Under the pieces are notes generated by a model that was not told the origin of the DNA, did no database searches, and saw only the letters and a list, made by a program, of their open reading frames with translations. Position numbers and translations under genes: made by a program. From Escherichia coli (GTDB lineage Bacteria; Pseudomonadota; Gammaproteobacteria; Enterobacterales; Enterobacteriaceae), in NCBI RefSeq assembly GCF_030384885.1, contig NZ_CP128613.1: a stretch of 64,000 bases of DNA. The stretch is one strand, 5' to 3'. The stretch's first letter is position 1; every line of letters begins with the position of its first letter. Shown piece after piece: positions 18,009 through 52,743 of this stretch.

Positions 18009-19289
18009 CTACTGCTTAGCCTCATCAAAACACTGGCTGATGATCTCCAGACCCTGACGGATCTGAGCGTCTTCAATGGTGAGCGGTACAAGGATGCGCA
18101 GCACGTTGTAATACGGGCCGCAGGAGAGAAGAATCAGGCCTTTATCGCGGGCGCGAGCCACGATCTCGGCGGTGAGTTTTGCGTCCGGTTTACTGTGATC
18201 GCCACCTTCAAACAGCTCTATAGCGATCATCGCCCCCAGCCCGCGAACGTCGCCGATCTCGGTGTGTTTTTCGGCGATCGCCAGCAATCCGTCTTTCAGC
18301 TTTTGCCCCAAATCGTTGGCTTTTTGCAGCAGATTTTCCTGCTCGAATACCTTCAACACTTCCAGCGCTGCCACGCAGGCAATCGGGTTACCCGCATAGG
18401 TACCGCCCAGACCGCCTGGAGCGACGGTATCCATCACTTCGGTGCGCCCGGTGACGCCCGCCAGCGGGAAACCGCCTGCGATCGATTTCGCAAAGGTGGT
18501 GAGATCCGGCGCGACGCCCATTTGCTCCATCGCAAACAGTGTGCCGGTACGCCCCGCGCCGCTTTGCACTTCATCGGCAATCAACATGATCCCGTGCTCG
18601 TCACACAGCGCGCGTAAACGCTGCATAAATGCAGGTGTCGCGGCGTAGAAACCGCCTTCACCCTGAACCGGCTCAATCACGATGGCGGCGATATCTTCCG
18701 GCGCAGCGTCATTTTTGAAGATCCGATGAATACTGGCGATAGCGTCATCTTCACTGATGCCGTGCAGCGGGCAAGGATAAAGCGCGCGATAAACATGGCC
18801 CGGCATCAGGCCCATGCCAGCAGAGTACGGGTTCACCTTACCAGTCAGCGCCAGCGTGTAGTGCGTGCGCCCGTGATACGCGCCGCTAAAGGCGATGGTA
18901 CCGCTACGTTTGGTGGCGGCGCGGGCGATTTTCACCGCGTTTTCCACCGCTTCGGAGCCCGTGGTGACCAGCAGCGTTTTTTTGGCGAAATCGCCTGGCA
19001 CCTTCTGATTCATAATCTCGCACAGCGCCAGATACGGCTCGTAGGCCAGCACCTGGAAGCAAGTGTGCGACAGCTTTTTCAACTGCGCTTCCACAGCCGC
19101 CACCACTTTCGGATGCAGGTGCCCGGTATTGAGCACCGCAATCCCGCCCGCGAAATCAAGATACTCACGGCCTTCAACGTCCCACACCCGGCAGTTTTCT
19201 GCGCGATCAGCGAAAATCGGGTGAATTTGCCCAACGCCACGGGGAATCGCCTGACTGCGGCGTTGCATTAACTCTTTATTGCTGCTCAT
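18009..19289 (-). CDS. gabT: 4-aminobutyrate aminotransferase GabT
   Basis: 426-aa class III PLP aminotransferase. Confidence 0.92.
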   Translation of the reverse strand: MSSNKELMQRRSQAIPRGVGQIHPIFADRAENCRVWDVEGREYLDFAGGIAVLNTGHLHPKVVAAVEAQLKKLSHTCFQVLAYEPYLALCEIMNQKVPGDFAKKTLLVTTGSEAVENAVKIARAATKRSGTIAFSGAYHGRTHYTLALTGKVNPYSAGMGLMPGHVYRALYPCPLHGISEDDAIASIHRIFKNDAAPEDIAAIVIEPVQGEGGFYAATPAFMQRLRALCDEHGIMLIADEVQSGAGRTGTLFAMEQMGVAPDLTTFAKSIAGGFPLAGVTGRTEVMDTVAPGGLGGTYAGNPIACVAALEVLKVFEQENLLQKANDLGQKLKDGLLAIAEKHTEIGDVRGLGAMIAIELFEGGDHSKPDAKLTAEIVARARDKGLILLSCGPYYNVLRILVPLTIEDAQIRQGLEIISQCFDEAKQ

Positions 19290-34139: not shown

Positions 34140-34183
34140 TGGTGGGCTGGCGGGAGTTGAACCCGCGTCCGAAATTCCTACAT
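34140..34183. repeat. attL: direct repeat of ssrA 3' end (1-nt deletion relative to attR copy)
   Basis: TGGTGG-GCTGGCGGGAGTTGAACCCGCGTCCGAAATTCCTACAT matches 48498-48542 except for one missing A. Confidence 0.85.
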
Positions 34184-34310
34184 ACTAATAATATATCTTT
34201 AAAATCAAAATATTCTATTATTTATCAATGTATTATGTTTATGTGGTGTTAAGGGGTTTATATGGGTTTTAGTTCTCTGCCGCCAAAATGCCGCCAAAAA
34301 AATTGAATGG

Positions 34311-34336
34311 TAAAACGCCAGTTCGTTGAACTGGCG
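34311..34336 (-). terminator. Rho-independent terminator of the dcd-like/thyX-like operon
   Basis: Perfect hairpin CGCCAGTTC-G-TTGAACTGGCG followed (on minus strand) by TTTT, 10 nt after the thyX-like stop. Confidence 0.55.
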
Positions 34337-34346
34337 AGATCTTGTC

Positions 34347-35114
34347 TTATTGTTTTATTATCTTAACGTGCGCCGTTCCTCCATTGACTTTTTCGAAATC
34401 TTGGAACAAGGCAGGGGCATCTTGAGTTACAATATCGTAAAGTTTTTCTGAAACTGTTCTCATTTCATAGTCACCCTGTATTGCTCCTCTCATTTCGAAG
34501 AAGTGTCGAATTGCGCGAGCATTTGCTGTGACGATTATTTTTGTCTCGGTTGCATTAGGCAATATAGAGCGAGAAGCGCTTCTTAAGGCCCGCATTTTTT
34601 CTTTTTTGTTCTCATACGATTGGTTTTCACGGATTTTTTTCAAGGATTGCTTATAAAAATCCAGACTACTTTCAATATGTTGGCACCATGACTTAAACAA
34701 TTCTGGGTCATTTTTTACTTCTATAGGGGCTACGAATTCAGCATCGGATTCATCATGATACTGTTGGGATAACTGGCTATATGAAAAACCAGCTCTATGC
34801 CGAACTAGCTGGTGTGTAAATGCACGAGATACCCCAGTAATTAAAAAGGTCCAGTTCAAATGTTCTAAGACACTTTCATGCCCTTGAATAATTAAATTGT
34901 TGATATATTGACTTGTAGTCCGTGGAGACTGCTTATCCTCTCCAAAAGACATATAACATAGCCTGCCAGCGGCCTCTACCAGAAGCTCAGCTTCGGTCGC
35001 CTGCCCTTTGCGAACCCATTGCAATGATGATGTGTTTAAAAAATCATCAAAAACATTACTTTCAAATGAAGGGTGTGATATGCATTTTACTGATAAATCA
35101 GAGATTTTTATCAT
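34347..35114 (-). CDS. ThyX-family (flavin-dependent thymidylate synthase, Thy1 domain) homolog
   Basis: 255 aa; signature RHR-x8-S (LVRHRAGFSYSQLSQQY), upstream GHESVLEH and downstream TANARAIRHFF blocks align with canonical ThyX (GHETPFEH ... WFRHRIASYNELSGRY ... TVNARSLMNF). Low GC. Confidence 0.75.
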   Translation of the reverse strand: MIKISDLSVKCISHPSFESNVFDDFLNTSSLQWVRKGQATEAELLVEAAGRLCYMSFGEDKQSPRTTSQYINNLIIQGHESVLEHLNWTFLITGVSRAFTHQLVRHRAGFSYSQLSQQYHDESDAEFVAPIEVKNDPELFKSWCQHIESSLDFYKQSLKKIRENQSYENKKEKMRALRSASRSILPNATETKIIVTANARAIRHFFEMRGAIQGDYEMRTVSEKLYDIVTQDAPALFQDFEKVNGGTAHVKIIKQ

Positions 35115-35116
35115 TT

Positions 35117-35902
35117 TTACTCCCGTATAGCTTTTGGGGTGCTTACTTTAGCATCAACCTTTGGTTCGTTTGATTTAGCATTTTTTAGTAATTCAACGGT
35201 GCTTTTTAGGCTATTTATTTCATTTTGTTGAACTTTTATTGTTAATTCAAGATCTTTTGTACTACTGACATTACTGGATACTATTTGAAATAAGAAAGGA
35301 ATTGCTAGGGTTATCAACGTTAGCATTAAGGCTGCTATCGCAATTATAAAGCCAGTTTTTTTCGCAATGATTTTATTGATTTCTTTCGGAAGTCGTTTAT
35401 CAAGTCCTGCAAAATCCTTTCCCATTCTAGAAAGTTGATCATCATCCAATTTATTTACGATTTTTCCTTGGTAACCTTTAGTCGGTATTATTGTTTTAAA
35501 TAATAACATTCGGGCTACTGCTGAATTTTGTGTCAATGAGAATGGTTCTTTTGACATATTTACAAGATATATTGAAATTATGCCATTATATCCAGGGTCA
35601 ATATGCCCTGGATTCGTCATGATAATTCCATTTTTTGATAGTGTGTTTCTTGGAAATATTACACCAGCTAAATTTTTTGCAAGTTGGAATTTTTCATTTA
35701 ACTCTAATATTACAGTTTCCCCTGGCATCAGGATATGGTTGTTACGTGTTTTTTTATTGTCTTGACAGTCTGGTATATGTATTGTTTTTACAGAGAGATC
35801 AATGCTTGCAGATTGAACTTTAAATGTTCCATTTAATACCGTTAATGGATCAAAAATGTTGCCTCGCTGAATTTCATCATTGATTTCTATTTCAGACAGC
35901 AT
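35117..35902 (-). CDS. dCTP deaminase/dUTPase-superfamily protein with C-terminal transmembrane helix and coiled-coil tail
   Basis: 261 aa; residues 1-150 align with E. coli Dcd (ASIDLSVKT / LMPGETVILEL / GHIDPGYNGIISIYLVNMSKEPFSLTQNSAVARMLL vs ATVDVRLGN / LHPGELALAV / [34 protein letters not shown]); C-terminal hydrophobic segment GFIIAIAALMLTLITLAIPFLF then K/E-rich tail. 2-bp gap to the thyX-like gene. Confidence 0.75.
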   Translation of the reverse strand: MLSEIEINDEIQRGNIFDPLTVLNGTFKVQSASIDLSVKTIHIPDCQDNKKTRNNHILMPGETVILELNEKFQLAKNLAGVIFPRNTLSKNGIIMTNPGHIDPGYNGIISIYLVNMSKEPFSLTQNSAVARMLLFKTIIPTKGYQGKIVNKLDDDQLSRMGKDFAGLDKRLPKEINKIIAKKTGFIIAIAALMLTLITLAIPFLFQIVSSNVSSTKDLELTIKVQQNEINSLKSTVELLKNAKSNEPKVDAKVSTPKAIRE

Positions 35903-35928
35903 ATCAAAATCCTATATTTGTAAAGTTA

Positions 35929-36942
35929 TTATAAATTAGCCAGAGGGTTTTTTATTACTGCATCTTCAAGATGCTCTGGGGAAAAATGTGCATAAATCAT
36001 AGTCATTTTTATATCAGAGTGGCCTAAAATATCTCGTAAAACCAAAATATTACCACCATTCATCATAAAATGGCTGGCGAATGTATGGCGCAGAACGTGA
36101 GTGCATTGGCCCTCTGGTAACTCAATGTCAGCTCGCTTTACTGCTCGTTCAAAGGCTTTTCTGCAAGGAGTGAATAACTTCCCTCTGTTCTTAGGGAGTT
36201 CGTCATACAGATCCTGAGATATCGGCACGGTACGGTTTTTCTTGCCCTTAGTCTTGGTATAGGTGATCCGGTATTTCGATAACTGATGGCCCTGCAGATT
36301 TTCGGCTTCACTCCAGCGCGCGCCGGTGGCCAGGCATATTTTTGTAATTAAAAGTAGACTGGGGCTTTGAGAATCAGCACAGGCATCCAGCAGACGTTTA
36401 ATTTCTTCCGGGGTCAGGAACGACAGTTCACCCTCAGCAATTTTAAATGTTGGCAGCCCGGCAAGCGGATTGGGGGCTGACCAGTGGCCCAACTTTTTCA
36501 GTGTGCCAAAAACAGATGATAGGTTGCGCTGTTCAAGGTTTACAGTGCGGGGCTTAACGGGCGACATAAGCGTGCCCTCTTCATTTCGCACTTCACCTTT
36601 TAGCCGCGCTTCTCGGTATTTAGTAAAATCACCGGCTGTCAGCTCTGAGGCGATGGGATCGCCTAGACCATTACAGATAATTCTAAGTTTCGCCATGAGG
36701 CGCTTGGGGTCTGCGAGTGTTTGACCATACAGGGAATACCACTGCTCAATTAATTCTGATAGGTGTCGCCGATCTTCCTTTTCCCCCAGCCATGGCTTTT
36801 TGTTCACTTCTTCCATTGTGAAGCTTTCAAAAGCAATGGCTTCGCCTTTCGTAGCAAATTGCTTACGCACGCGCTTGCCATTGCGTCCATGGGGATAGCA
36901 CTCGCACAACCATTTACCGTTTGGCTGTTTTCTGACAGTCAT
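35929..36942 (-). CDS. int: Tyrosine recombinase, P2/186-type prophage integrase
   Basis: 337 aa; N-terminal GRNGKRVRKQFATKGEAIAFE, catalytic-region motifs (LATGARWSEA, HVLRHTFASHF, MIYAHF) typical of P2-like integrases. Confidence 0.85.
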   Translation of the reverse strand: MTVRKQPNGKWLCECYPHGRNGKRVRKQFATKGEAIAFESFTMEEVNKKPWLGEKEDRRHLSELIEQWYSLYGQTLADPKRLMAKLRIICNGLGDPIASELTAGDFTKYREARLKGEVRNEEGTLMSPVKPRTVNLEQRNLSSVFGTLKKLGHWSAPNPLAGLPTFKIAEGELSFLTPEEIKRLLDACADSQSPSLLLITKICLATGARWSEAENLQGHQLSKYRITYTKTKGKKNRTVPISQDLYDELPKNRGKLFTPCRKAFERAVKRADIELPEGQCTHVLRHTFASHFMMNGGNILVLRDILGHSDIKMTMIYAHFSPEHLEDAVIKNPLANL

Positions 36943-36944
36943 GT

Positions 36945-37577
36945 TTAGATACTCTTTATTACTTTGACTGCACGCCCAATAACTTCCACATCATCAGTAG
37001 AGCACTCGAAAGACGCTTCATCTTGATTTACTACAATCTTATTGCCGGGAATCCGCATGATTTTTGCAACAATAATCATTCCATCAATATTGATAAGCCA
37101 GAATCCATTGCTGACCTGTTTAATTGATTTATCGATGAGATAACAATTAGTAGGGGTTTCTAAGAACATCAATTCTTCATAATCTGCAGGTAATATGCTG
37201 TGGTCTAGGAAAATCTCTTCATCAATACTGAGTTGTCCATTCTCCAGGGTTCCTTTAGGAATAGCTGGAGTTATGAGTTTGGATAACGGTTTAATTGCTT
37301 GTTTGTTCTCATTATGAGAACTTTTCTCAGGCTCAGCTCCTCCTTTCATGCTTCCCTGTCCTGTAGCTAACCAAAGCAACGAAACACCGGTTTCTAGTGC
37401 GCACTGAATTATCCAGTCAGCAGGAAAGCTGTCACGTAACACTCTGTTTGCCATAGTGCTTTTTGAGACATTCAGGTGCTCGCTTAATGCCTGCTTAGTT
37501 GTGAATCCATAAGCCTCAAGCAGCCTTTCAATAGCTGCCTTACCTCCCGTATCGGAACCCATTCTGATGTTTAACAT
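36945..37577 (-). CDS. Phage CI-like repressor (186 CI-type HTH)
   Basis: 210 aa; HTH region LSEHLNVSKSTMANRVL; immediately upstream of and overlapping int start (cI-int operon), divergent from apl/cox-like gene. Confidence 0.7.
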   Translation of the reverse strand: MLNIRMGSDTGGKAAIERLLEAYGFTTKQALSEHLNVSKSTMANRVLRDSFPADWIIQCALETGVSLLWLATGQGSMKGGAEPEKSSHNENKQAIKPLSKLITPAIPKGTLENGQLSIDEEIFLDHSILPADYEELMFLETPTNCYLIDKSIKQVSNGFWLINIDGMIIVAKIMRIPGNKIVVNQDEASFECSTDDVEVIGRAVKVIKSI

Positions 37578-37698
37578 TGGTGATCTCCATTTGACAATCT
37601 TGAATCAAGATCGTAATGTCTTCATGTCTCTTGATGTGAGAGTTTAAGAGACGGGCTAAAACGAACTAACACGCACACAAAGTAAGAGATACTGCACT

Positions 37699-37941
37699 AT
37701 GAGTACTGATATTTCAATTCGTGTACCAAAAGAGATGGCTACGCCTGCAGAGTTCGCAGAGTGGGAGGGTATTTCCCGCGGCTCTGTTTACCAAAAAATT
37801 CACCATGGTCAACTTGCTAAGTACATGGTCAAGAAAGAAAAAAACAAAGGCCGCGTAAGCCTGCGTTATCTGATGTACAAAACCGATCAGGTCCGTGAAT
37901 CCCTCGGTCATTCCAACTTCCGCGTCATTGTTGGTAAGTAA
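37699..37941 (+). CDS. Apl/Cox-like excisionase/lytic switch regulator
   Basis: 80-aa basic protein divergently transcribed from cI-like gene, HTH-like EWEGISRGSVYQKI. Confidence 0.6.
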   Translation: MSTDISIRVPKEMATPAEFAEWEGISRGSVYQKIHHGQLAKYMVKKEKNKGRVSLRYLMYKTDQVRESLGHSNFRVIVGK

Positions 37942-37973
37942 GTTCAATTATGGGAACTTTCTAAGGGGGCACC

Positions 37974-38483
37974 ATGTTTGATTACAAGATTTCCAAACAT
38001 CCGCATTTCGATGAAGCCTGTAGGGCTTTTGCACTGCGCCACAACCTGGTGCAACTGGCAGAACGTGCAGGCATGAATGTGCAGATTCTGCGGAACAAGC
38101 TGAACCCAGCTCAACCTCATTTATTAACTGCACCAGAAATCTGGTTGCTTACCGATCTGACTGAAGATTCAACGCTGGTAGATGGTTTTCTGGCTCAGAT
38201 TCACTGCCTGCCATGTGTACCGATTAATGAGGTGGCAAAAGAGAAACTGCCACATTACGTCATGAGTGCAACCGCAGAGATCGGGCGTGTCGCGGCAGGT
38301 GCGGTTTCTGGCGATGTAAAAACCAGTGCAGGCCGTCGTGATGCGATCAGCAGCATTAACTCTGTTACACGACTGATGGCGCTGGCTGCTGTTTCATTGC
38401 AGGCCCGTTTACAGGCTAATCCTGCGATGGCGAGTGCGGTTGATACCGTGACTGGCCTCGGTGCTTCATTCGGTTTGCTGTGA
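37974..38483 (+). CDS. CII-like phage regulatory protein (186 CII-like)
   Basis: 169 aa; position and size match phage 186 CII; HTH-like N-terminus. Confidence 0.6.
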
Positions 38484-38489
38484 GGTGCT

Positions 38490-38787
38490 TATGCTGATGA
38501 AAGAACCATCATTTGCATCGCTCCTGGTAAAACAAAGTCCGGCAATGCACTACGGTCACGGCTGGATCATGGGTGAGGATGGTAAACGCTGGCATCCGTA
38601 CCGTTCACAAGATGAATTGCTGTCTGAATTGACCACGAGGAAACGGAGAAAGTCCAAATGTATGCGGCAGAAAATAAAGTGGTTTATCACTTTCGTTACA
38701 GAGGGGAGAATTATTCAGTACCTGAAGATGATTTGCTCTGTTGCTATCCGTCGTTGTCGGGCGATGGTAGCTACTTTTTCACGCTAA
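38490..38787 (+). CDS. Hypothetical small phage protein (possibly shorter; overlaps next ORF out of frame)
   Basis: ORF begins MLMKEPSFASLLVKQSPAMHYGHGWIMGEDGKRWHPYRSQDELLSEL; distal part overlaps 38658-38882 and may be a read-through artefact. Confidence 0.35.
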
Positions 38788-38882
38788 AGGATGGAACCTT
38801 TATACGTGGTGAAAAAGTACAAGAAGTGATGCGTATAAAGACATCACCTCTTGAACGTTATCGGCGAAATATTTATCGGTAA
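38658..38882 (+). CDS. Hypothetical small phage protein
   Basis: 74 aa, preceded by GGAGAAAG Shine-Dalgarno. Confidence 0.5.
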   Translation: MYAAENKVVYHFRYRGENYSVPEDDLLCCYPSLSGDGSYFFTLKDGTFIRGEKVQEVMRIKTSPLERYRRNIYR

Positions 38883-39121
38883 CGATCTATCAGTGTCTGT
38901 ATCAGATGAGTGAATTCTTGTTGTTTAACCGAACCTAAAGGAAGTTTGTTTAATTCTTCGCGGAGGAGCTCAAAAAATGCTGATTGATTTGCTGAGTCAG
39001 TTCGAAATAAGGAGTGGATCAGACCTGAAACAAGAATTCGTTGAACAGCAACCTCATCGCGAAGACTGGAGATCTCGTTTTCAAGTTGCTCTATACGCTC
39101 TCTTTCAACCGGGTTCAACAT
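38873..39121 (-). CDS. Hypothetical coiled-coil protein (82 aa), opposite strand to early operon
   Basis: ORF MLNPVERERIEQLENEISSLRDEVAVQRILVSGLIHSLF...; heptad-like pattern; opposite orientation to flanking genes. Confidence 0.4.
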   Translation of the reverse strand: MLNPVERERIEQLENEISSLRDEVAVQRILVSGLIHSLFRTDSANQSAFFELLREELNKLPLGSVKQQEFTHLIQTLIDRYR

Positions 39122-39202
39122 TGATGATTCCTTCTAGCTATCAATATGTTGGTAATGGATCATATCAAAAATTTTTTAGTAGATGTGTTGTGGGATGCAT
39201 AA

Positions 39203-39544
39203 ATGGCTATTGAAGGCACTGCGGCGACTGTTCCATTAAGCCCCGGTGAACGCCTGAATGGACTTAATCACATTGCGGAGTTAAGGGCGAAAGTTTTTGG
39301 CCTGAATATTGAGTCAGAGCTTGAGCGGTTTATTAAAGATATGCGTGATTCACGGGATATTAATAGCGAACAAAATAAACGGGCACTGGCTGCCATATTC
39401 TTTATGGCAAAAATTCCAGCTGAACGTCATAGCATCAGCATTAATGAGCTGACCACTGACGAAAAGCGGGAGTTGATTAAAGCAATGAATCATTTTCGTG
39501 CAGTGGTGAGCTTATTTCCCAGACGGCTAACCATGCCGAATTAA
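39203..39544 (+). CDS. Hypothetical phage protein (113 aa)
   Basis: ORF in early-operon orientation. Confidence 0.5.
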   Translation: MAIEGTAATVPLSPGERLNGLNHIAELRAKVFGLNIESELERFIKDMRDSRDINSEQNKRALAAIFFMAKIPAERHSISINELTTDEKRELIKAMNHFRAVVSLFPRRLTMPN

Positions 39545-39605
39545 CCAACTAATGAAATTAATGGCGTAAACCCGCCGGGCATCCCTTTATCTAAATTCAG
39601 GAGAA

Positions 39606-39845
39606 TTGATTATGCGTAATATTGAAACCCTCTCGACCAAAACCGGACCGGATGACGCAGGGCTTAATATTTTACTGACAGAGGCTCGTCTGGAAGAACG
39701 CCGGGCAAGGGCTGAAGCAATGGCAGCTCGCCTTGATAGCCTGGCGTGTCATATCACATCCCGCCAGCTAACCCACGTCGAAGCGGCAGAACTGCTTCGT
39801 GTGACTGCTGAAGCAATCCAGAACGAAGCGCAGGAGATCCACTGA
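39606..39845 (+). CDS. Hypothetical phage protein (79 aa)
   Basis: ORF with GGAGAA RBS; stop overlaps next start (ATGA). Confidence 0.5.
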   Translation: MIMRNIETLSTKTGPDDAGLNILLTEARLEERRARAEAMAARLDSLACHITSRQLTHVEAAELLRVTAEAIQNEAQEIH

Positions 39846-40072
39846 TGGCTGATGCAATGGATCTCGTACAGCAGCGCGTTGAAGAAGAACGCCAACGCCA
39901 TATCCGTGCTGCCCGTGCCAAAACGCCGGGCGTGTCCCGCGTGCTTTGCATTGAGTGTGAAGCGCCAATTCCGCCAGCACGCCGCCGTGCCATTCCGGGT
40001 GTGCAGCTTTGCATTACCTGTCAGGAAATCGCAGAGCTGAAAGGCAAACATTACAACGGAGGTGCTGTATGA
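39845..40072 (+). CDS. TraR/DksA-family C4 zinc-finger protein
   Basis: 75 aa with CIECEAPI...CITCQ four-Cys motif. Confidence 0.7.
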   Translation: MADAMDLVQQRVEEERQRHIRAARAKTPGVSRVLCIECEAPIPPARRRAIPGVQLCITCQEIAELKGKHYNGGAV

Positions 40073-40926
40073 GCACCATCCTGAAATGGGCGGGAAATAA
40101 AACTGCCATAATGTCCGAACTGAAAAAACATCTTCCTGCTGGCCCGCGACTGGTTGAACCTTTCGCGGGTTCCTGTGCTGTGATGATGGAGACGGATTAT
40201 CCCAGCTATCTGGTTGCGGATATTAATCCTGATTTAATCAACCTCTATAAAAAGGTTGCCGCTGATTGTGAATCGTTTATATCTCGCGCCAGAGTTTTAT
40301 TTGAGATCGCAAACAGGGAGGTGGCTTATTACAACATAAGGCAGGAGTTTAATTACTCAACTGAAATTACTGATTTCATGAAAGCGGTATATTTCCTGTA
40401 TCTCAATCGTCACGGTTACCGTGGTTTATGTCGCTATAACAAGAGCGGGCATTTCAACATTCCCTACGGTAATTATAAAAATCCGTATTTCCCTGAAAAA
40501 GAAATTCGCGCATTTGCAGAAAAGGCCCAGCGAGCAACGTTTATCTGCGCCAGCTTTGATGAAACGCTGGCGATGTTGAAGGCGGGGGATGTGGTGTATT
40601 GCGATCCGCCGTATGACGGTACGTTTTCCGGCTATCACACTGACGGCTTCACTGAAGATGACCAGTATCACCTGGCATCTGTTCTTGAACATCGGTCATC
40701 AGAAGGACATCCGGTCATTGTTTCTAACAGTGACACATCCCTGATCCGTTCGCTGTATCGCAATTTTACTCACCACTACATCAAGGCAAAACGCAGCATC
40801 GGTGTGGCAGCTGGCGAGGGTAAATCAGCAACAGAAATCATTGCTGTTTCCGGGCCGCGCTGCTGGGTGGGATTTGATTATTCGCGTGGCGTGGATAGTT
40901 CTGCCGTGTACGGAGTACGTGCATGA
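40069..40926 (+). CDS. DNA adenine methyltransferase (Dam-like, D12 class N6-adenine MTase)
   Basis: Protein [25 protein letters not shown]...EPFAGSCAV... and DPPY catalytic motif (VYCDPPYDG). Confidence 0.85.
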
Positions 40927-43337
40927 GTCATGCCGATATGAACAACTGCTGCGGCTTTAACGAAGCTGCCGCATCGTTCTCATGGAACAGCCCGAAAAAG
41001 GCCATTAACCCTTATCTGGACCCGGCGGAAGTTGCGCCGGTTTCTGCGCTTTCAAACCTGATCACTCTGTACGCTACTGATAACGAGCAGGAACAACTGC
41101 GCCGCGAGGCACTGAGTGATCAGGTCTGGGAGCGTTATTTCTTTAATGAATCCCGTGATCCTGTCCAACGCGAAATGGAGCAGGATAAGCTCATTAGCCG
41201 GGCAAAGATGGCGCATGAGCAGCAGCGTTTTAATCCAGACATGGTCATTCTGACTGACGTCAACGCCCAGCCTTCCCATATCAGCAAGCCGCTGATGCAA
41301 CGTATTGAATATTTCAGCAGCCTGGGCAGGCCAAAGGCTTATTCCCGCTATTTGCGTGAGACGATTAAGCCATGTCTGGAACGACTGGAGCATGTACGCG
41401 ACAGCCAGCTATCTGCATCTTTTCGTTTTATGGCAAGCCATGAAGGGCTGGACGGTCTGCTGATCCTGCCTGAAATGAGTCAGGATCAGGTGAAACGCCT
41501 GTCTACCCTTGTCGCTGCGCATATGAGCATGTGTCTTGATGCCGCTTGTGGTGATTTGTACGCCTCCGATGATGTTAAGCCAGAAGAAATCCGCAAGACA
41601 TGGGAAAAGGTGGCTGCAGAAACCCTGCGACTGGATGTCATACCGCCTGCGTTTGAGCAACTCCGCCGGAAAAGAAACCGCCGCAAACCTGTGCCTTATG
41701 AACTCATTCCGGGTTCGCTGGCGCGTATGCTGTGCGCCGACTGGTGGTATCGGAAATTATGGAAGATACGTTGCGAATGGCGGGAAGAGCAGTTGCGTGC
41801 TGTCTGCCTGGTCAGCAAAAAAGCATCTCCCTATGTCAGCTATGAAGCCGTGATGCATAAACGTGAGCAGCGCCGTAAGTCGCTGGAGTTTTTCCGTTCT
41901 CATGAACTGGTGAACGAAGACGGCGACACGCTGAACATGGAGGATGTGGTAAACACCAGCAGCAGCAACCCGGCGCATCGCCGCAACGAGATGATGGCCT
42001 GTGTTAAAGGCCTAGAGCTTATCGCGGAAATGCGTGGTGACTGCGCCGTTTTCTACACCATCACCTGTCCGTCACGTTTCCATTCCACGCTAAATAACGG
42101 CAGGCCAAACCCGACCTGGACCAACGCGACAGTAAGACAAAGCAGCGATTATCTGGTCGGCATGTTTGCTGCATTTCGTAAGGCTATGCACAAAGCCGGG
42201 TTGCGCTGGTATGGCGTGCGGGTGGCTGAGCCGCATCATGACGGCACAGTTCACTGGCACCTGTTGTGTTTCATGCGCAAAAAAGACCGCCGCGCCATTA
42301 CTGCATTGTTGCGTAAGTTTGCCATCCGTGAAGACCGCGAGGAGCTGGGCAATAACACGGGGCCACGCTTTAAGTCTGAGCTGATAAACCCGCGCAAAGG
42401 AACGCCGACAAGCTACATTGCGAAATATATCAGTAAGAATATTGACGGGCGTGGTCTGGCTGGCGAGATCAGTAAGGAAACGGGTAAATCCCTGCGTGAT
42501 AACGCTGAATACGTTAATGCCTGGGCGTCTCTGCATCGTGTTCAGCAATTCCGCTTCTTTGGCATTCCGGGGCGTCAGGCTTACCGTGAACTGCGATTGC
42601 TGGCTGGTCAGGCGGCAAGGCAACAGGGTGACAAAAAAGCAGGTGCGCCGGTACTGGATAACCCGCGCCTTGATGCCATCCTGGCTGCTGCTGATGCTGG
42701 TTGTTTTGCCTCCTACATCATGAAGCAGGGCGGCGTACTGGTTCCCCGCAAATATCACCTCATCAGAACCGCTTATGAAATCAACGAAGAGCCGACCGCC
42801 TATGGCGATCACGGTATTCGTATTTATGGCATCTGGTCACCCATTGCAGAGGGCAAGATCTGCACTCATGCAGTGAAGTGGAAAATGGTTCGTAAGGCCG
42901 TTGACGTTCAGGAGGCGGCAGCCGACCAGGGCGCTTGCGCCCCTTGGACTCGTGGCAATAACTGTCCCCTTGCTGAAAATTTGAACCAACAGGAGAAAGA
43001 TAAATCAGCTGATGGGGACACCAGAACGGACATTACCCGCATGGATGACAAGGAGTTGCACGATTACCTGCACAGTATGAGCAAAAAAGAGCGCCGGGAA
43101 CTGGCTGCAAGGTTACGCCAGGTGAAACCGAAACGGCGTAAAGACTACAAACAGCGAATTACAGACCATCAGCGACAGCAGCTCGTCTATGAACTGAAGT
43201 CCAGGGGATTTGATGGCAGTGAGAAAGAAGTCGATTTGCTCCTTCGCGGTGGCAGTATTCCGTCAGGAGCAGGCCTGCGTATTTTCTATCGGAACCAGCG
43301 TCTGAAGGAAGATGATAAGTGGCGGAACCTGTATTAA
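40923..43337 (+). CDS. Phage replication initiation protein (186/P2 gene A-type endonuclease)
   Basis: 804-aa protein following Dam in early operon; size and position match P2/186 protein A. Confidence 0.7.
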
Positions 43338-43489
43338 TTACGCGGGTTAACAATTCGTGCCCTTAATAATACCAGGCATATCAGGCTGATGAATGTAAAA
43401 AAACGTTTTACATCAGTAAGATTATTATATACTGTAAATATAAACAGTGGTTATCTATACAGTATTGCTTTGGTGTCATAGGAGGAAAG

Positions 43490-43678
43490 ATGCAGGACTA
43501 TTTTTTGGAGTCTTTGAAGCTCCAGCGCATTGATTTTTTTCTTAAGCTTGTAGCGGCTAGTGAGTGTAGTGATGAAGAGAAGGGGCTGGCTCTGCAGTGG
43601 GTTTCTGAACTGACAGATGAACTCATGGCAAAAATCAGAACCCACGAATACAACCGCTCAATGGATGTCATCAGCTGA
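43490..43678 (+). CDS. Hypothetical protein (62 aa)
   Basis: Small ORF with GGAGGAAAG RBS upstream of ATG. Confidence 0.45.
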   Translation: MQDYFLESLKLQRIDFFLKLVAASECSDEEKGLALQWVSELTDELMAKIRTHEYNRSMDVIS

Positions 43679-43688
43679 GGTGACTTTT

Positions 43689-43922
43689 ATGCGCATTGAA
43701 ATAATGATCGATAAAGAGCAGAAGATTAGCCAGTCTACCCTGGACGCCCTTGAATCCGAGCTTTACCGCAATCTGCGCCCCCTGTATCCCAAAACGGTAA
43801 TCCGTATCCGTAAAGGTAGCTCTAACGGTGTGGAACTGACCGGACTGCAACTGGACGAAGAAAGAAAACAAGTGATGAAAATTATGCAGAAGGTGTGGGA
43901 AGACGACAGCTGGCTGCATTGA
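43689..43922 (+). CDS. DinI-family protein
   Basis: 77 aa MRIEIMIDKEQKISQSTLDALESELYRNLRPLYP...VWEDDSWLH, resembling DinI (MRIEVTIAK...DALAGELSRR...W...). Confidence 0.7.
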   Translation: MRIEIMIDKEQKISQSTLDALESELYRNLRPLYPKTVIRIRKGSSNGVELTGLQLDEERKQVMKIMQKVWEDDSWLH

Positions 43923-44035
43923 TTTTGTCAATAGACGCTTGTTTTTACTAATCAAAAAGGGTTACATATGAGTGAGAGGCGATGTCAATCAGATATCGCC
44001 TTGTTTTTTGTCAAGAAAAGAATAATAGGCTAAAA

Positions 44036-44713
44036 ATGAAAATTAATAATGTAGCGTTACCAATATCTCTTGCTGTAATCCTAACTGGTTGCGTGCCACA
44101 TGCTTCTAACCGAAATATCACTGCTATTGAAGTGGTGAAGCCTGCTATTGGGCAAAGTGCTACCGCCTACATGGGCGATCCCATTATCACATCTGCTACT
44201 GGATTTAAAACGGACGTACTAGAACTTGGTGCGGCTAATGGTGCATTGTCTTCTATCGCTGCTGGTACATATTGCAGTGAGGGGAATGGAATTTACCGCA
44301 ATTATCATAACCCTCAAGCTGTTGCGTTAAAAAATCTCTATGGGCAAATCGGTAACTATGTTGATTATGTTAGTTACGATGCTGCAAAAAATGAGATATC
44401 ACCGCCAAATGGTACTTCTTATACTGCATCAGAAATTTCTATCAAACGTGTTCCTGATGGGCTGTGTCGAGTTAGTAACTCATTGGTTAAGACTATCGAA
44501 TACAATGGAAATGCAGGCGGTGTAATGAAGTTCACCTATCGTGAATTTGCAAACGATATGGCTCGTGCAGCATTTACAACAGATTTTTCTGTAGATTCTA
44601 AGGGAAGTGACGTTATCGCTTACAAAGGTGCCAAGTTCAAAGTGAACAAGGCTGATAACTCGTCTATTTCTTATACAATTATTTCTGGCTTTGACAAGGC
44701 TGTCACGTTCTAG
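44036..44713 (+). CDS. Predicted lipoprotein (225 aa), function unknown
   Basis: Signal peptide with lipobox (MKINNVALPISLAVILTGC); low-GC; located in cargo region after replication gene. Confidence 0.6.
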   Translation: MKINNVALPISLAVILTGCVPHASNRNITAIEVVKPAIGQSATAYMGDPIITSATGFKTDVLELGAANGALSSIAAGTYCSEGNGIYRNYHNPQAVALKNLYGQIGNYVDYVSYDAAKNEISPPNGTSYTASEISIKRVPDGLCRVSNSLVKTIEYNGNAGGVMKFTYREFANDMARAAFTTDFSVDSKGSDVIAYKGAKFKVNKADNSSISYTIISGFDKAVTF

Positions 44714-45038
44714 GTTTCACGCTTACTGAGTATGTTACGATTTTGCACATTCTGCATAAACGCGCATGTCTATGCTGCATGAGATCGCATGATCGTTTGA
44801 GGATCTTTTGTGTTAAGGCCCGCCAGTTCTGGCGGGCTTTTGCGTAGATCATGCAGGTGCATGAAAACCACTACATAAAGCGGGCAGGCGTGGCGGGGAT
44901 ACGAGCGCGCGTTATGACAAATAGATGATTAGCCTGATTTATTCACAGCTGTATAAATGATCACCTTGTAATTAGGTAAGTAATGTCTTCTATTATCATT
45001 GATTTGATAGGATTAATCTGTTTTTTGAGGATTAGAGG

Positions 45039-47375
45039 ATGATTGAAGAGGTAGTTATTGACAAAGTAGGCTCATATAATGGCCCTACTCAGCTTTTACA
45101 TGGGCTTTCTAAATTTAACTATTTATATGGAGCTAATGGTGCAGGTAAAACAACTATAAGTAAAATTATTAATGACCCTGAACAATATCCAACATGTCCG
45201 ATTAAATGGAAAAATAATATATCTTTAATAAGCTACGTATATAATAAAGATTTTGTTGAAAGAAATTTTAGTCAAGATAAAATTAAAGGTGTATTTACCC
45301 TTGGTAGCGATCTTAAGGAGGATGAAGAGAAATTAATATCTCTTGAAGAAGAAAAAAATAAGCTAATAGAATCTATTATAGCAAAGGAAAAGCTAATAGA
45401 TGGTGGTGATAATATATTAGGCGTTGTTAAACAAATCGAAGACCATGAAAAATCTTTTAAAGATTCATGTTGGAAGCAAAAAGTAAAACATGATAATGTG
45501 TTCTCAAAGGCTTTTGAGGGATTAAGGAATAGTAGTGAAAAATTTAAAGCTAGAGTGTTGGCTGAGTATGAAAATAACACATCAGAAGTTTGCTCAATAG
45601 CAGAGCTAATTGAGAAAGCAAAAATTGTTTTTTCTACTGAATTGACATCACATGTATCAATTACAATTCCATCCTTCAATGGGATAGATGATATTTTGAG
45701 TAGGGAGATTTGGAGTGAGCGTATTCTAGGGAAAAAAGACGTTAGTGTTTCAGACTTAATTACAATGCTCAATAACAGTGATTGGGTTAAGGAAGGTTTA
45801 ACATATTTCAGTAAATCTAATCCCAAGTGCCCATTCTGCCAGCAGGATGTAAATGATAATATATTTGATAATCTATCATCATATTTTGATAAAACATATG
45901 AGTTAAAAAAAAGAGAAATCGATGCATTGGTTTTACAATATGAACATCAACTTAATAATATCTTGCAGGCGATAGATGATATAAGGGCGATTAAATCTCC
46001 ATTCATAAATTATGAAGTGTTTGAGGATAAGGCTAAGATAGTATTATCTGAATTAAACAAGAATTTTGAATTGGCAAAAAATAAACGCAATTTTTTAAGT
46101 GAATCAGTTCATTTTAGTGACTTAAGTGAAGTTGTTGATGATTTTATTTCTTTTTTGAATGATTCAAATCTATTGATAGATAATAATAACAAAATACACA
46201 GTAATAGAAAGGTAGAGGCTAGTAATCTTTCTAATCAGATATGGGCATATATCGTAAAGGTGGAGTTAAAGTCTGAAATAACTTCTTACCGTAGCGAATC
46301 TGATAAATTTAATAGGAAGTTACAAGGGCTTAAATCTGGGTTAGAGGAAGACAAAAAGAAGTTAATGTTAAATGCTTCGGCTATTGAGGCAATTGAGTCT
46401 AATAAAACCAGTACTCTTCCAACTATTACAAAAATTAACAAGATTCTGGATTCTTATGGCTTCAAAAATTTTTACTTAAAACCCTCCGAAGATAAAAAGC
46501 ATTATATGATAGTGAGAGATAGTGGAGATAATGCTCGTACAACCCTTAGCGAGGGAGAAAAGACATTTATCACTTTTTTGTATTTTTATAGCCTTGTTAG
46601 AGGGAGTGATAATGCATCAGGTGTTTTAGATGATCGTGTTGTAGTATTTGATGATCCAATTTCAAGTTTAGATAGTGATATTCTGTTTATTGTAAGTTCG
46701 TTGATTAAAGATTTAATGGAGGATGTTCGTAAGGATGAAGGAAATATTAAGCAAATTATATTCCTTACACATAATATTTATTTTCATAAAGAGTTGACTT
46801 TTAATACTAAAAGATCCGGTAATCAAGCAATGAAAGAGGAGACTTTTTGGATTGTAAGGAAAAAAGGGAAGGTCTCATATCTTGAAAAGTGCGAATCAAA
46901 CCCAATAAAAACGTCTTATGATTTGCTCTGGTGCGAATTGAGAAGAACAGATATTAATAATAATACTATACAAAATACAATGCGAAGGATTTTGGAGAAT
47001 TACTTTAAGATATTAGGTGGGATGGATATTAGGAAGCTTGAATGTCATTTTTATGGTGATGAAAAAATCATATTTAAATCTTTAGTGTCATGGATTAATG
47101 ATGGTTCTCATTTTGCAGGTGATGATCTTTATATGAATTTAGATACGGAGTCTGTGCAAAAATATTTAATTGTTTTTCAGAAGATATTTGAGTGTAGTGA
47201 GCATACTGCCCATTACAAAATGATGATGGGTGAGTTTTATAGACCGTTAAATGAGTCACTTCATCTACAAGATGAGTTTGATATTGATGATAGTGCGAAT
47301 GATGAGTATGCTTCGTCAAAAATTGAGATAGAAGATGGAATAAACACATCTCTACATAGTAATACATATTTGTAA
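45039..47375 (+). CDS. PrrC/RloC-like ABC-type ATPase (AAA_13-like) with CxxC motif and C-terminal putative HEPN-like domain
   Basis: 778 aa; Walker A GANGAGKTT, Walker B VVVFDDPISSLD, H-loop-like FLTHN, long K/E-rich coiled-coil insert containing CPFC; C-terminal domain with RKLECH (R-x4-H) and RRILE (R-x3-E) motifs; very low GC. Confidence 0.65.
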   Translation: MIEEVVIDKVGSYNGPTQLLHGLSKFNYLYGANGAGKTTISKIINDPEQYPTCPIKWKNNISLISYVYNKDFVERNFSQDKIKGVFTLGSDLKEDEEKLISLEEEKNKLIESIIAKEKLIDGGDNILGVVKQIEDHEKSFKDSCWKQKVKHDNVFSKAFEGLRNSSEKFKARVLAEYENNTSEVCSIAELIEKAKIVFSTELTSHVSITIPSFNGIDDILSREIWSERILGKKDVSVSDLITMLNNSDWVKEGLTYFSKSNPKCPFCQQDVNDNIFDNLSSYFDKTYELKKREIDALVLQYEHQLNNILQAIDDIRAIKSPFINYEVFEDKAKIVLSELNKNFELAKNKRNFLSESVHFSDLSEVVDDFISFLNDSNLLIDNNNKIHSNRKVEASNLSNQIWAYIVKVELKSEITSYRSESDKFNRKLQGLKSGLEEDKKKLMLNASAIEAIESNKTSTLPTITKINKILDSYGFKNFYLKPSEDKKHYMIVRDSGDNARTTLSEGEKTFITFLYFYSLVRGSDNASGVLDDRVVVFDDPISSLDSDILFIVSSLIKDLMEDVRKDEGNIKQIIFLTHNIYFHKELTFNTKRSGNQAMKEETFWIVRKKGKVSYLEKCESNPIKTSYDLLWCELRRTDINNNTIQNTMRRILENYFKILGGMDIRKLECHFYGDEKIIFKSLVSWINDGSHFAGDDLYMNLDTESVQKYLIVFQKIFECSEHTAHYKMMMGEFYRPLNESLHLQDEFDIDDSANDEYASSKIEIEDGINTSLHSNTYL

Positions 47376-47424
47376 TTTTATTGCAATTGCCAGTAGCAAC
47401 AATACGGTACTGGCAACTAATATT

Positions 47425-47965
47425 TTAGTTAAGCTCATATGGAGAAAATTCTATAAGTTTCTCCCCGAGCCATGCGTTTATTTCCATAAATCGTTTTTGC
47501 AAAGGAATTAATTCATTTATCACAAAAACCTTACTAGCCTTCTCCACATCCCCAAACCCCCCAACATTATTAGGCATTATCCCCATCATTTGCGGCGGCA
47601 CACGGTGTGCCGCCATCATGTCGTCCCGGCTCACGTTCTTGATATTCAGAAACTCATCCTTCGCCGCGACTTCTGACAACGGGATAATCTGAAGCCCGTC
47701 CTTTTTGCCGTTAGGAGAGTACATAAACAGGTTGCGGAAGTTGCCTGGCCCTTTGGCACTTTTCATTGCGTTGCGGAGGTTGTTCACATCTTCTTGGTTC
47801 TGTGCGGCATCGGTCATGTACATGATGAAACCTGCATGGCTGCCGTTGATGTAATACTTACGGCGGAACAGTGTGGCGGACTCGTTGAGCAGGGCTGACG
47901 GGATGGCAGAGAGATAACCTGGCAGGCCGTAGATCTCCTGGTTGATGTCCGGTTCCGCCCTTAAT
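47425..47965 (-). pseudogene. Phage portal protein (P2 gpQ-like), 3' fragment only
   Basis: C-terminal portal-like sequence (...FRNLFMYSPNGKKDGLQIIPLSEVAAKDEFL...); reading frame extends upstream without start until sequence character changes near 47965. Confidence 0.6.
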
Positions 47966-48153
47966 CATCTCAACCATGCGTTACAGCTCGATCCCCGCTG
48001 TGGCGTGAAAAAAGACAAACAGCAGCTGGAGCGCAGACTGCGCAATGACAGCCGCTGACAGAACGTGCCCCCGCGCACGGGCGGCACGGGGTGGCGAAAG
48101 GCACAGCCACATCAAAACCCCGTCCACCGCCCTTTATTTCAGGAGAAAGCAGC

Positions 48154-48354
48154 ATGAAGTTTGTTGCGCCAGAACAGGCACCGGAACAGGCGGAAATCAT
48201 CAGAAACACGCCGTTCTGGCCTGATGTGGACCTGTCGGAGTTTCGCAGTGTCATGCGCACTGACGGCACGGTGACGCAGCCGCGTTTAAAGCAGGTTGCG
48301 CTGTCGGCAATTTCGGAGGTCAACGCACCGATACGACCATTTGCATTGATGTAA
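48154..48354 (+). CDS. Hypothetical small protein in prophage remnant (66 aa)
   Basis: ORF MKFVAPEQAPEQAEIIRNTPFWPDVDLSEFRSV... preceded by AGGAG RBS; identity not recognised. Confidence 0.4.
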   Translation: MKFVAPEQAPEQAEIIRNTPFWPDVDLSEFRSVMRTDGTVTQPRLKQVALSAISEVNAPIRPFALM

Positions 48355-48497
48355 ACAAAGTGAAGTTCTTCCATGTGAAACCTCTTTGCATGATTTCAAG
48401 ATGGCGACAGGCAAGATGGACGCAAAAGTCTGTCGCCATTTTGCCGCCACTACCAAAGAAAAAGGGGCTACGCTTTCACGTAACCCCTTGATTTATT

Positions 48498-48542
48498 TGG
48501 TGGAGCTGGCGGGAGTTGAACCCGCGTCCGAAATTCCTACAT
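48498..48542. repeat. attR: ssrA 3'-terminal att core
   Basis: TGGTGGAGCTGGCGGGAGTTGAACCCGCGTCCGAAATTCCTACAT, repeated at 34140-34183. Confidence 0.85.
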
Positions 48543-48860
48543 CCTCGGTACTACATGCTTAGTCAGTCTTTACATTCGCTTGCCAGCTGCGGACGGACAC
48601 GCCACTAACAAACTAGCCTGATTAAGTTTTAACGCTTCAACCCCAGGCAGGGCTTCCACGCGATCTCTTTTGGGTTTGACCTCTCTTGATCCCCGTCCTA
48701 AGAGCGGAGGCTAGGGAGAGAGGGCTCTAAGCAGGTTATTAAGCTGCTAAAGCGTAGTTTTCGTCGTTTGCGACTATTTTTTGCGGCTTTTTACGAGGCC
48801 AACCGCCCCTCGGCATGCACCTTGGGTTTCGCAAATCCCGTCGAATCCAGAATCAGCCCC
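48498..48860 (-). ncRNA. ssrA: tmRNA (SsrA)
   Basis: Reverse complement matches E. coli tmRNA from 5' GGGGCTGATTCTGGATTCGACGGG to 3' ...GGGTTCAACTCCCGCCAGCTCCACCA, including the tag-coding region. Confidence 0.95.
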
Positions 48861-52658: not shown

Positions 52659-52743
52659 AGTTGTTTTCCTGTATGAAAAACCATTACTGTTATTGTGTAC
52701 AGTATAAACTGGTTTTATATACAGTAAAGAGGCTGGCGTAAAA

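Follow-up and report, generated by a model that had tools for sequence, protein, structure and literature searches.

Organization of the element at ssrA

We analyzed a 64-kb stretch of the Escherichia coli genome GCF_030384885.1 (64,000 nucleotides [nt] of contig NZ_CP128613.1; here referred to as the window), in which 14.36 kb of phage-derived DNA lies at the 3′ end of ssrA, the gene for transfer-messenger RNA (tmRNA). This element carries the early region of a phage related to coliphage 186, two modules of accessory (cargo) genes, and a few relics of late genes (Table 1), and it is enclosed by two copies of the tmRNA 3′ end. An exact core of 38 nt recurs at 34146–34183 and 48505–48542, with no third copy in the window and a chance expectation of 0; extended out to the tmRNA 3′ end, the copies measure 44 nt (distal) and 45 nt (proximal). 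They differ by a single A, which is missing from the distal copy (TGGTGG-GCTGG) and present in the proximal one (TGGTGGAGCTGG). The duplication agrees with the terminal repeat of Salmonella phage RE-2010 and has the form of an attachment (att) core duplicated by site-specific integration. ssrA itself is the sole tmRNA call made by ARAGORN and is full length (Rfam, 295.8 bits, model positions 1 to 374 of 374); between 33.5 and 49.5 kb, Rfam returned nothing besides tmRNA.

Repeat searches and tmRNA calls bear out the flanking repeats, with their one-nucleotide difference, that a first-pass annotation of this DNA had reported. That annotation had named two findings that would speak against its reading, namely repeats that are not att duplications and structural genes adjoining the element. 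Both copies are att duplications, and outside them lies core chromosome, with ypjA on one side, ssrA-smpB-ratA on the other, and no adjoining phage structural genes.

Table 1. Features of the element at ssrA and of its borders (window coordinates; percentages are identities to the named relative; ORF, open reading frame; aa, amino acids)
Feature	Position	Strand	Evidence and remarks
attR, distal att copy	34140–34183		44-nt tmRNA 3′-end duplicate; outer 34140–34152 (TGGTGG-GCTGGCG, 1 nt deleted), old CP4-57-type scar; inner part, long Felsduovirus-type core
ThyX-like flavin-dependent thymidylate synthase	34347–35114	-	TIGR02170, 154.8 bits (cutoff, 87.9); E 7e-42 to Mycobacterium tuberculosis ThyX; GC 32–37%
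dUTPase/dCTP-deaminase-fold (DCD-like) protein, paired with the ThyX-like gene	35117–35902	-	Pfam DCD PF22769, dUTPase PF00692; phrog_1663; conserved C-terminal hydrophobic segment
Tyrosine integrase, full length	35929–36942	-	phrog_1; 337/337 aa aligned; 94% to RE-2010 and MINF_1D integrases, 54% to 186 Int
CI immunity repressor, full length, RE-2010 immunity type	36945–37577	-	phrog_4; 99% to RE-2010 cI region, only 57% to MINF_1D CI
Apl/Cox-like excisionase/repressor, 80 aa	37699–37941	+	phrog_575, phrog_6912; 100% to MINF_1D protein
CII-like lysogeny activator	37974–38483	+	phrog_101; 100% to RE-2010, 68% to 186 CII
Fil-like cell-division inhibitor	38491–38787	+	phrog_32377, 98/98 profile positions; 61% to 186 Fil
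82-aa ORF, function unassigned	38873–39121	-	phrog_26925; inside small variable insert, ~38660–39200
DUF5347, DUF2732, and TraR/DksA-like zinc-finger genes	39203–40072 (TraR/DksA-like, 39845–40072)	+	phrog_602, phrog_128, phrog_54; all full length
Dam-type DNA adenine methyltransferase	40069–40926	+	phrog_56, E 1e-123; 98% to RE-2010
Replication initiator A, rolling-circle nickase	40923–43337	+	phrog_91, E 7e-290; 804/804 aa, 97.8% to RE-2010
Perfect LexA box, CTGTAAATATAAACAG	43432–43447	+	Upstream of orf62-DinI operon; same place as LexA-controlled 186 p95/tum promoter
62-aa ORF and 77-aa DinI/Tum-like protein	43490–43922 (DinI-like, 43689–43922)	+	phrog_698, phrog_189; 41% to DinI-like C-terminal part of 186 Tum
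243-aa ORF, lipoprotein-like N terminus (…LTGC)	43982–44713	+	phrog_1353; 98% to unannotated RE-2010 stretch; position of 186 orf97
cos site, 19-nt cohesive-end sequence, GGCGTGGCGGGGATACGAG	44887–44905	+	Alignment across joined right and left termini of 186; identical in RE-2010 and MINF_1D
AAA_13 ABC-type ATPase, PrrC/RloC-like, 778 aa	45039–47375	+	PADLOC PDC-S06, E 1.5e-266; weaker PrrC, E 2.5e-11; Pfam AAA_13, E 7e-164; GC ~30%
Portal (gpQ) 3′ fragment, pseudogene, 532 bp	47425–47956 (ORF, 47425–47823)	-	C-terminal ~177 of 343 codons; phrog_68 positions 209–339 of 344
Deletion junction 1	47948–47956		Mid-portal joined to last ~112 bp of gpM; imperfect 9- to 10-bp microhomology TCCGG(C)TTCC
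gpM/gpL relic, 380 bp	47957–48326	+	Last ~112 bp of terminase small subunit gpM and first ~58 codons of head-completion gpL; phrog_71
Deletion junction 2	48326–48327		gpL codon ~58 joined 49 bp inside the last ORF before att; 2-bp microhomology CA
ssrA-side phage arm, 171 bp	48327–48497		First 49 bp of terminal ORF, candidate Int arm-type sites, hairpin downstream of ssrA
ssrA, intact	48498–48860	-	Final 45 nt (48498–48542), proximal att copy

Gene families were assigned from PHROGs, NCBIfam, and Pfam, and full-length status was judged against RE-2010, an ssrA prophage of E. coli MINF_1D, and 186. Measured against these intact relatives, all 12 of the 12 early genes are full length. Their set and order, int-cI divergent from apl/cox-cII-fil...traR-dam-A, are collinear with RE-2010, MINF_1D, and 186, as in members of the Peduoviridae. 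Every gene call of the first-pass annotation (int, cI, apl/cox, cII, a TraR-like gene, Dam, A, a DinI-like gene, and the 3′ portal fragment) was upheld by the profile searches, which add Fil, DUF5347, and DUF2732 to the list. The origin of replication presumably lies inside the A gene, as in P2 and 186; the 186 annotation places it there.

The 62-aa ORF and the DinI/Tum-like gene downstream of the LexA box form a putative SOS-inducible antirepressor module. Only one other perfect LexA box was found in the window, upstream of recN (placed by alignment to K-12), and it serves as a positive control of the scan, recN being an SOS gene. The region upstream of recN (52687–52724) holds this perfect box and a one-mismatch box 22 bp apart, the expected SOS operator pair.

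The element also retains a cos site (44887–44905), which adds to the earlier reading. It is preceded by a terminator hairpin (44818–44842) and lies between the accessory locus and the portal gene, the place of P2/186-type cos sites in the Peduoviridae. The match to the P2/186 consensus carried 3 mismatches and was accepted only after alignment to the 186 termini and on its conservation in RE-2010 and MINF_1D. Candidate integrase sites are present in both att arms. Two copies of TGCCGCCA lie 11 bp apart (34278 and 34289) in the int-side arm; in the ssrA-side arm, TGTCGCCA and TGCCGCCA occur at 48431 and 48442, again 11 bp apart, with an inverted copy at 48402. These candidates resemble the 186 Int arm-site consensus YAYCGCCAYTY, which was taken from the 186 annotation.

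Three smaller points concern the early region. The Apl/Cox protein has 80 aa in the window and in MINF_1D and 52 aa as annotated in RE-2010, and its gene is marked as frameshifted in E. coli TUM12355; the excisionase reading frame is thus polymorphic in this phage group. The insert at ~38660–39200, between fil and the DUF5347 gene, is absent from RE-2010 (a gap in the blastn alignment) and lies in a minor hotspot of P2-like phages that has been described as “integrase-to-primase.” Finally, the 243-aa ORF agrees with 186 orf97 in length and position; tblastn showed no similarity between the two, and we dropped the claim of homology.

An intact twin and two recent deletions

Over the early region, the backbone of the element shares 94 to 97% nt identity with RE-2010 (Felsduovirus, Peduoviridae), and identity reaches 99.7% with the MINF_1D prophage, which is ~36.4 kb long and apparently complete by annotation. 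Closer still is a prophage of E. coli GCA_028611705.1 (locus L037), found by exact-protein look-up with the AAA_13 protein. Over window positions 35039–47956, it differs from the element by 1 mismatch in 12,918 bp (99.992% identity). Its gene content is the same from thyX to the AAA_13 gene and then continues with full portal, terminase, scaffold, capsid, gpM, gpL, lysis, and tail genes. So small a divergence from this intact prophage, a single mismatch over 12.9 kb, indicates that the late genes were lost very recently.

Alignment to the intact prophages resolves this loss into two deletions rather than one, of ~5.6 and ~17.8 kb, which leave the element ~23.4 kb short of the MINF_1D and L037 prophages. 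The first took the remaining portal gene, terminase P, scaffold O, capsid N, and most of M, and homology to the intact portal accordingly stops at 47956. The second took the remainder of L, the lysis genes, every tail gene, D, ogr, and most of the terminal ORF. Between the junctions survives the gpM/gpL relic, which is 99.7% identical to L037 positions 18482–18862; annotated genes underlie its E. coli matches. The element and its immediate flanks hold no working copy of capsid, terminase, lysis, or tail genes or of ogr. The complete late operons and ogr/B activator of the Peduoviridae are gone, and the element is therefore a defective remnant of a member of this family and not a functional member. 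The first-pass annotation had recognized the loss of working late genes, which stands; it had also taken the 3′ portal fragment to be all that was left of them, which does not, the gpM/gpL relic having been overlooked.

The second junction created a 134-aa chimeric ORF (minus strand, 47970–48374), which takes its start codon from the deleted terminal ORF, crosses the junction, and runs antisense to gpL and gpM. It probably has no meaning as a gene. As a tag, found beside the 132-aa portal stub, it recovered contigs with 99.98 to 100% identity from at least five sequencing runs that are independent of one another, ERR13369355, ERR12948940, SRR35948513, SRR28813876, and SRR14995614 among them; this fits clonal carriage of the remnant. 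A search for exact copies of the 87-aa gpL′ fusion ORF returned nothing. No complete E. coli genome was found with 80% or more of the element, and none of 5,426 complete E. coli genomes contains the junction-bearing stretch 47700–48497 as one contiguous match. The population frequency of the two-junction remnant is thus not estimable from that collection.

A sibling in E. coli TUM12355 carries the same cargo and has other deletions: Fil through the N terminus of A is gone, the portal is fused to the tape-measure gene, and U, D, and ogr are kept. Given these different deletions, the two remnants decayed independently. In draft genomes, the phage type with an identical ThyX occupies ssrA in at least four distal-flank contexts, and it is an active phage now or was one recently. 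A second integrase-bearing island lies distal to the ssrA Felsduovirus prophage in TUM12355 (L001, 1–2838) and at loci L027, L028, L030, and L036. The integrase of these islands is of the Arm-DNA-bind_3 type and is accompanied either by resolvase/ParB and type I restriction-modification genes or by HEF_HK/Response_reg_2 genes. Several strains have tandem arrays of elements at ssrA.

Cargo genes

The two cargo modules stand out by their low GC content (30 to 37%, compared to ~50% in the backbone). P2 phages have an accessory and defense hotspot between gpA and gpQ, adjoining cos (PMC9122126), and their att-int locus holds 3% of P2 systems (bioRxiv 10.64898/2026.02.27.708500); both modules of the remnant thus occupy loci already described as P2 accessory/defense hotspots. 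The AAA_13 ATPase in the cos-proximal hotspot is a candidate defense gene by its profile matches. It matches the PDC-S06 profile over residues 1 to 733 and has the AAA_13 domain, and AAA_13 is among the P2-hotspot gene arrangements in the supplement of Rousset et al. (PMC9122126).

The module at the att-int locus pairs a ThyX-like gene with a DCD-like gene. The ThyX-like protein scores above the equivalog cutoff and has both the RHR and the SYSQLSQ motif. The family to which it belongs in this cassette has an invariant R-to-Q change in SQRY and a 1-aa insertion after RHR, so that its substrate or activity may differ. In the DCD-like protein, the position of the Dcd catalytic Glu is Y in the window and Y, C, or T across the family, and the IDPG aspartate is invariant. 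We considered whether this protein is an anti-phage dCTP deaminase and rejected the assignment: it has no PADLOC match, its NCBIfam dCTP_deam score of 56 bits is below the cutoff of 92.8, and the catalytic Glu is replaced. PADLOC models likewise gave no match for the ThyX-like protein, the lipoprotein-like ORF, or the small ORFs.

The DCD-like/ThyX-like cassette is present in 1 of 5,426 complete E. coli genomes and is kept as a pair elsewhere in Enterobacterales, Shewanella, and Pseudomonas (loci L007 to L013 and L016 to L021). Its settings are diverse and include prophage att-int loci and neighborhoods that resemble defense islands. In Citrobacter, it is found at the end of an integrative and conjugative element (ICE) and also beside GmrSD and an AAA_15 protein; in Pseudomonas aeruginosa, it lies between a helicase/NYN gene and an nSTAND protein; in Morganella and Shewanella, it forms solitary insertions; in Pantoea, it adjoins the ogr end of a P2-like prophage; and it also occurs in another P2-like prophage, whose main hotspot contains a TIR/SEFIR gene. 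We found nothing relevant in the literature that connects thyX, or thymidylate synthase and dCTP deaminase, with anti-phage defense, and DCD-like plus ThyX-like cargo appears neither in the supplementary catalogues of PMC9122126 nor in the main text of bioRxiv 10.64898/2026.02.27.708500. The cassette, which probably combines a membrane-anchored dUTPase-fold protein with an atypical ThyX, could be an undescribed anti-phage or nucleotide-pool system that moves among prophage att-int loci, ICEs, and defense islands. We put this forward tentatively, as a possibility that is more doubtful than probable. It is the only potentially new item of the element.

History of the integration site

In K-12 MG1655, CP4-57 (22 kb) fills exactly this interval, and ypjA is the outer neighbor in both strains; alignment to K-12 thus confirms the statement in the first-pass annotation that the K-12 site is occupied by this unrelated element. 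Homology to K-12 ends at window position 34161 and restarts at 48496, with no CP4-57 sequence in between and neither intA nor alpA. The closest complete genome, 2013C-4282, has flanks that are 99.9 to 100% identical to those of the window and a 25.8-kb CP4-57-like island at the site. The occupant of ssrA has therefore changed recently.

In the distal repeat, the 1-nt deletion together with the adjoining flank matches exactly the CP4-57 attR scar (“psaA”) found in K-12 and 2013C-4282, and the undeleted form, TGGTGGAGC, is found at nine of nine other loci that carry the phage (exact ThyX matches; L027 to L036 minus L031). We therefore rejected decay since integration as the source of the one-nucleotide difference between the repeats, since it is a preexisting chromosomal scar common to K-12 and 2013C-4282. 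The distal att is a hybrid of this old scar and a long core supplied by the phage, which is the outcome to expect had the phage entered a lineage in which a CP4-57-like island was still present or had only just been lost.

A fossil att scar lies farther out, at 28592–28672, and is also present in 2013C-4282. It comprises 67 nt that are 91% identical to the Felsduovirus-type arm now adjoining ssrA, a degenerate tmRNA 3′ end (TTGATGAGTTGGCGG), and the end of a CP4-57-like island; it adjoins a pinH invertase pseudogene fragment (~28835–28993). This scar points to a longer history in which elements integrated at ssrA more than once. An ancient prophage to the left of 28.6 kb found no support, as tblastx of 23 to 29.4 kb against the phage loci gave only the att scar, the pinH fragment, and ileY. 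The last of these, a match at ~26180–26278 to the 186 attP region with the ileY 3′ end, is presumably the ileY tRNA gene (the 186 attB), seemingly unoccupied.

Origin of the remnant and alternative explanations

We consider it very probable that the element is a recently truncated prophage of the 186/Fels-2/RE-2010 type (Peduoviridae, Felsduovirus-like) that retains its early region and cargo at ssrA. It is an ordinary defective prophage of a P2-family kind that is already known. The alignments to RE-2010, MINF_1D, and L037 thus support the first-pass description of a defective 186/P2-like prophage at ssrA that keeps its early region and cargo and has lost its late genes. In the course of events that we propose, a tyrosine integrase would have inserted the phage into the 3′ end of ssrA, which stayed intact because attP brought along its own copy of the tmRNA 3′ end. 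Two illegitimate, microhomology-mediated deletions account for the missing ~23.4 kb, one from mid-portal to near the end of gpM and the other from gpL codon ~58 to the last ORF. They left, in 14.36 kb, a complete lysogeny switch (cI, apl, cII, and int), the early/replication operon up to A, the LexA-controlled DinI/Tum-like operon, cos, both att arms, and the accessory loci.

As read from its genes and sites, the remnant would give CI-mediated immunity against RE-2010-type phages and express its accessory genes, some of them candidate anti-phage genes. After SOS induction, it can probably excise and replicate, and it is predicted to be unable to lyse the cell or build particles. That the early genes were retained would reflect where the deletions fell and how recent they are, rather than long-term selection.

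Several points weigh against this account or limit it. What we say of expression, immunity, excision, and replication is deduced from sequence. The source genome was read within the 64-kb window, and it may or may not have a resident helper phage. The runs that carry the remnant may represent one clone, and their contigs stop inside the att repeat (at about window position 48534), so that host backgrounds are not comparable. Deletion before and deletion after integration of the copy in the window both fit the data.

An alternative, which we regard as unlikely, is that the remnant is a helper-dependent “hitcher” that excises by Int and Apl, replicates by A, is packaged at cos by a coresident or superinfecting P2, 186, or Felsduovirus helper, and so spreads its defense cargo; loss of the late genes would then have made the phage satellite-like. 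It keeps what such a life would take: cos, int, apl, A with the presumed origin, the Tum-like operon with its LexA box, and the two att arms, each with candidate Int sites. The P2 terminase packages foreign cos-bearing genomes such as P4 (PMC9122126), which makes helper mobilization of the remnant possible in principle. Its presence in several independent runs fits this explanation, and the order of deletion and integration is compatible with it either way. However, PHROG scans detected no capsid-size redirection, helper transactivator (ogr/delta deleted), or primase-helicase function, and the stubs that remain of portal, gpM, and gpL as pseudogenes are the leftovers of random decay rather than parts of a streamlined element. 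At 14.4 kb, moreover, the element is under half a head-full, so that packaging would require multimers. The absence of the contiguous junction-bearing stretch from all of the complete genomes searched also speaks against spread, and the 99.98 to 100% identity of the copies is consistent with clonal inheritance. The sequence gives no sign of adaptation to a helper-mobilized lifestyle, and a newly formed helper-dependent element is less likely than a novel system in the DCD-like/ThyX-like cassette.

We find it similarly improbable that the remnant is a long-domesticated module, in which host selection has kept immunity and defense and the host needs the regulatory and replication genes. Every retained ORF is intact, the cargo consists of candidate defense functions in known hotspots, and defective P2-like prophages with near-identical defense genes have been discussed as possible cases of domestication (bioRxiv 10.64898/2026.02.27.708500). 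Yet the single mismatch to the intact prophage leaves almost no time for selection or neutral decay, and on this 99.992% identity we reject domestication of long standing. The acquisition is itself recent, given that 2013C-4282, with its nearly identical flanks, holds the CP4-57-like island instead. The pattern of retention is also inconsistent, since the TUM12355 sibling lost part of A and other early genes and keeps tail genes. The first-pass suggestion of a “domesticated or satellite-like” element is thus not sustained as an evolutionary statement: the deletions are very recent and seem confined to a single clone, none of the complete E. coli genomes searched has the junction stretch as one contiguous match, TUM12355 differs, and satellite-specific genes are lacking.

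That the late genes are missing only through a collapse or misjoin of a complete prophage in the assembly is a negligible prospect: prophage regions misassemble easily where related prophages coexist, but contigs with both junctions from at least five independently sequenced runs are 99.98 to 100% identical to the window, which rules out misassembly, and one contig of 14,381 bp has the length of the element, as expected from a graph break at the 45-nt att repeat.

As a recently truncated prophage, the remnant shows in textbook fashion how prophages decay at an integration hotspot that is already well known, and it changes little on its own. Its value is that of a well-dated example, with a progenitor one single-nucleotide difference away, a differently deleted sibling, and a sister strain with a CP4-57-like island, in which occupants of ssrA turn over quickly. 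Large microhomology deletions can turn a lytic-competent phage into a nonlytic carrier of immunity and defense genes. The remnant further offers a natural setting in which to test helper mobilization of cos-keeping deletion derivatives of the P2 family. Its most promising lead, the DCD-like/ThyX-like cassette, gives defense-system screening a candidate that is both concrete and cheap.

Comparison with known systems

Of known elements, those most like the remnant are the RE-2010/Fels-2-type Felsduoviruses and the prophages of MINF_1D and GCA_028611705.1, which have in common with it the ssrA attP, early gene order, 94 to 99.99% identity, cos, and the positions of the accessory loci; its cI is of the RE-2010 type. 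It differs from RE-2010 in cargo, ThyX/DCD-like and AAA_13 genes in the window compared to gp01 and an AIPR protein in RE-2010, and from the Felsduoviruses in lacking ~23.4 kb of late genes and ogr. Coliphage 186 (Eganvirus) has the same arrangement of int-cI/apl-cII-fil...A, a LexA-controlled tum/DinI operon, an ORF, cos, and portal, with homologous cos termini and a similar Int arm consensus. Protein identity to 186, however, is only 30 to 68%, and 186 integrates at ileY, whereas the element is at ssrA. Tum is a single 146-aa protein in 186 and is represented in the window by the 62-aa ORF and the 77-aa DinI-like ORF.

CP4-57 of K-12 uses the same ssrA 3′ end beside the same ypjA neighbor but is unrelated in gene content (intA, alpA, and rnlAB, among others) and has a shorter att core. 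P4-like satellites resemble the remnant in being integrated, in having a P2-type cos beside a defense hotspot, and in that any transfer depends on P2-family structural genes. Unlike them, it is without alpha primase-helicase, sid, psu, delta, and epsilon, and its genes are up to 99.99% identical to those of a complete phage; alpha primase-helicase, sid/psu, and delta families were absent from the PHROG, Pfam, and NCBIfam matches of every ORF.

Further counterparts are the defective P2-like prophages with conserved defense genes described together with the P2 hotspots (Rousset et al. 2022, PMC9122126; bioRxiv 10.64898/2026.02.27.708500). Like the remnant, they carry defense-type cargo on the cos side, between gpA and gpQ, with a further cargo locus at att-int, and their mobility and structural genes are pseudogenized while the cargo is intact. 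The remnant in the window differs from them in that its decay can be dated as very recent through a near-identical intact progenitor.

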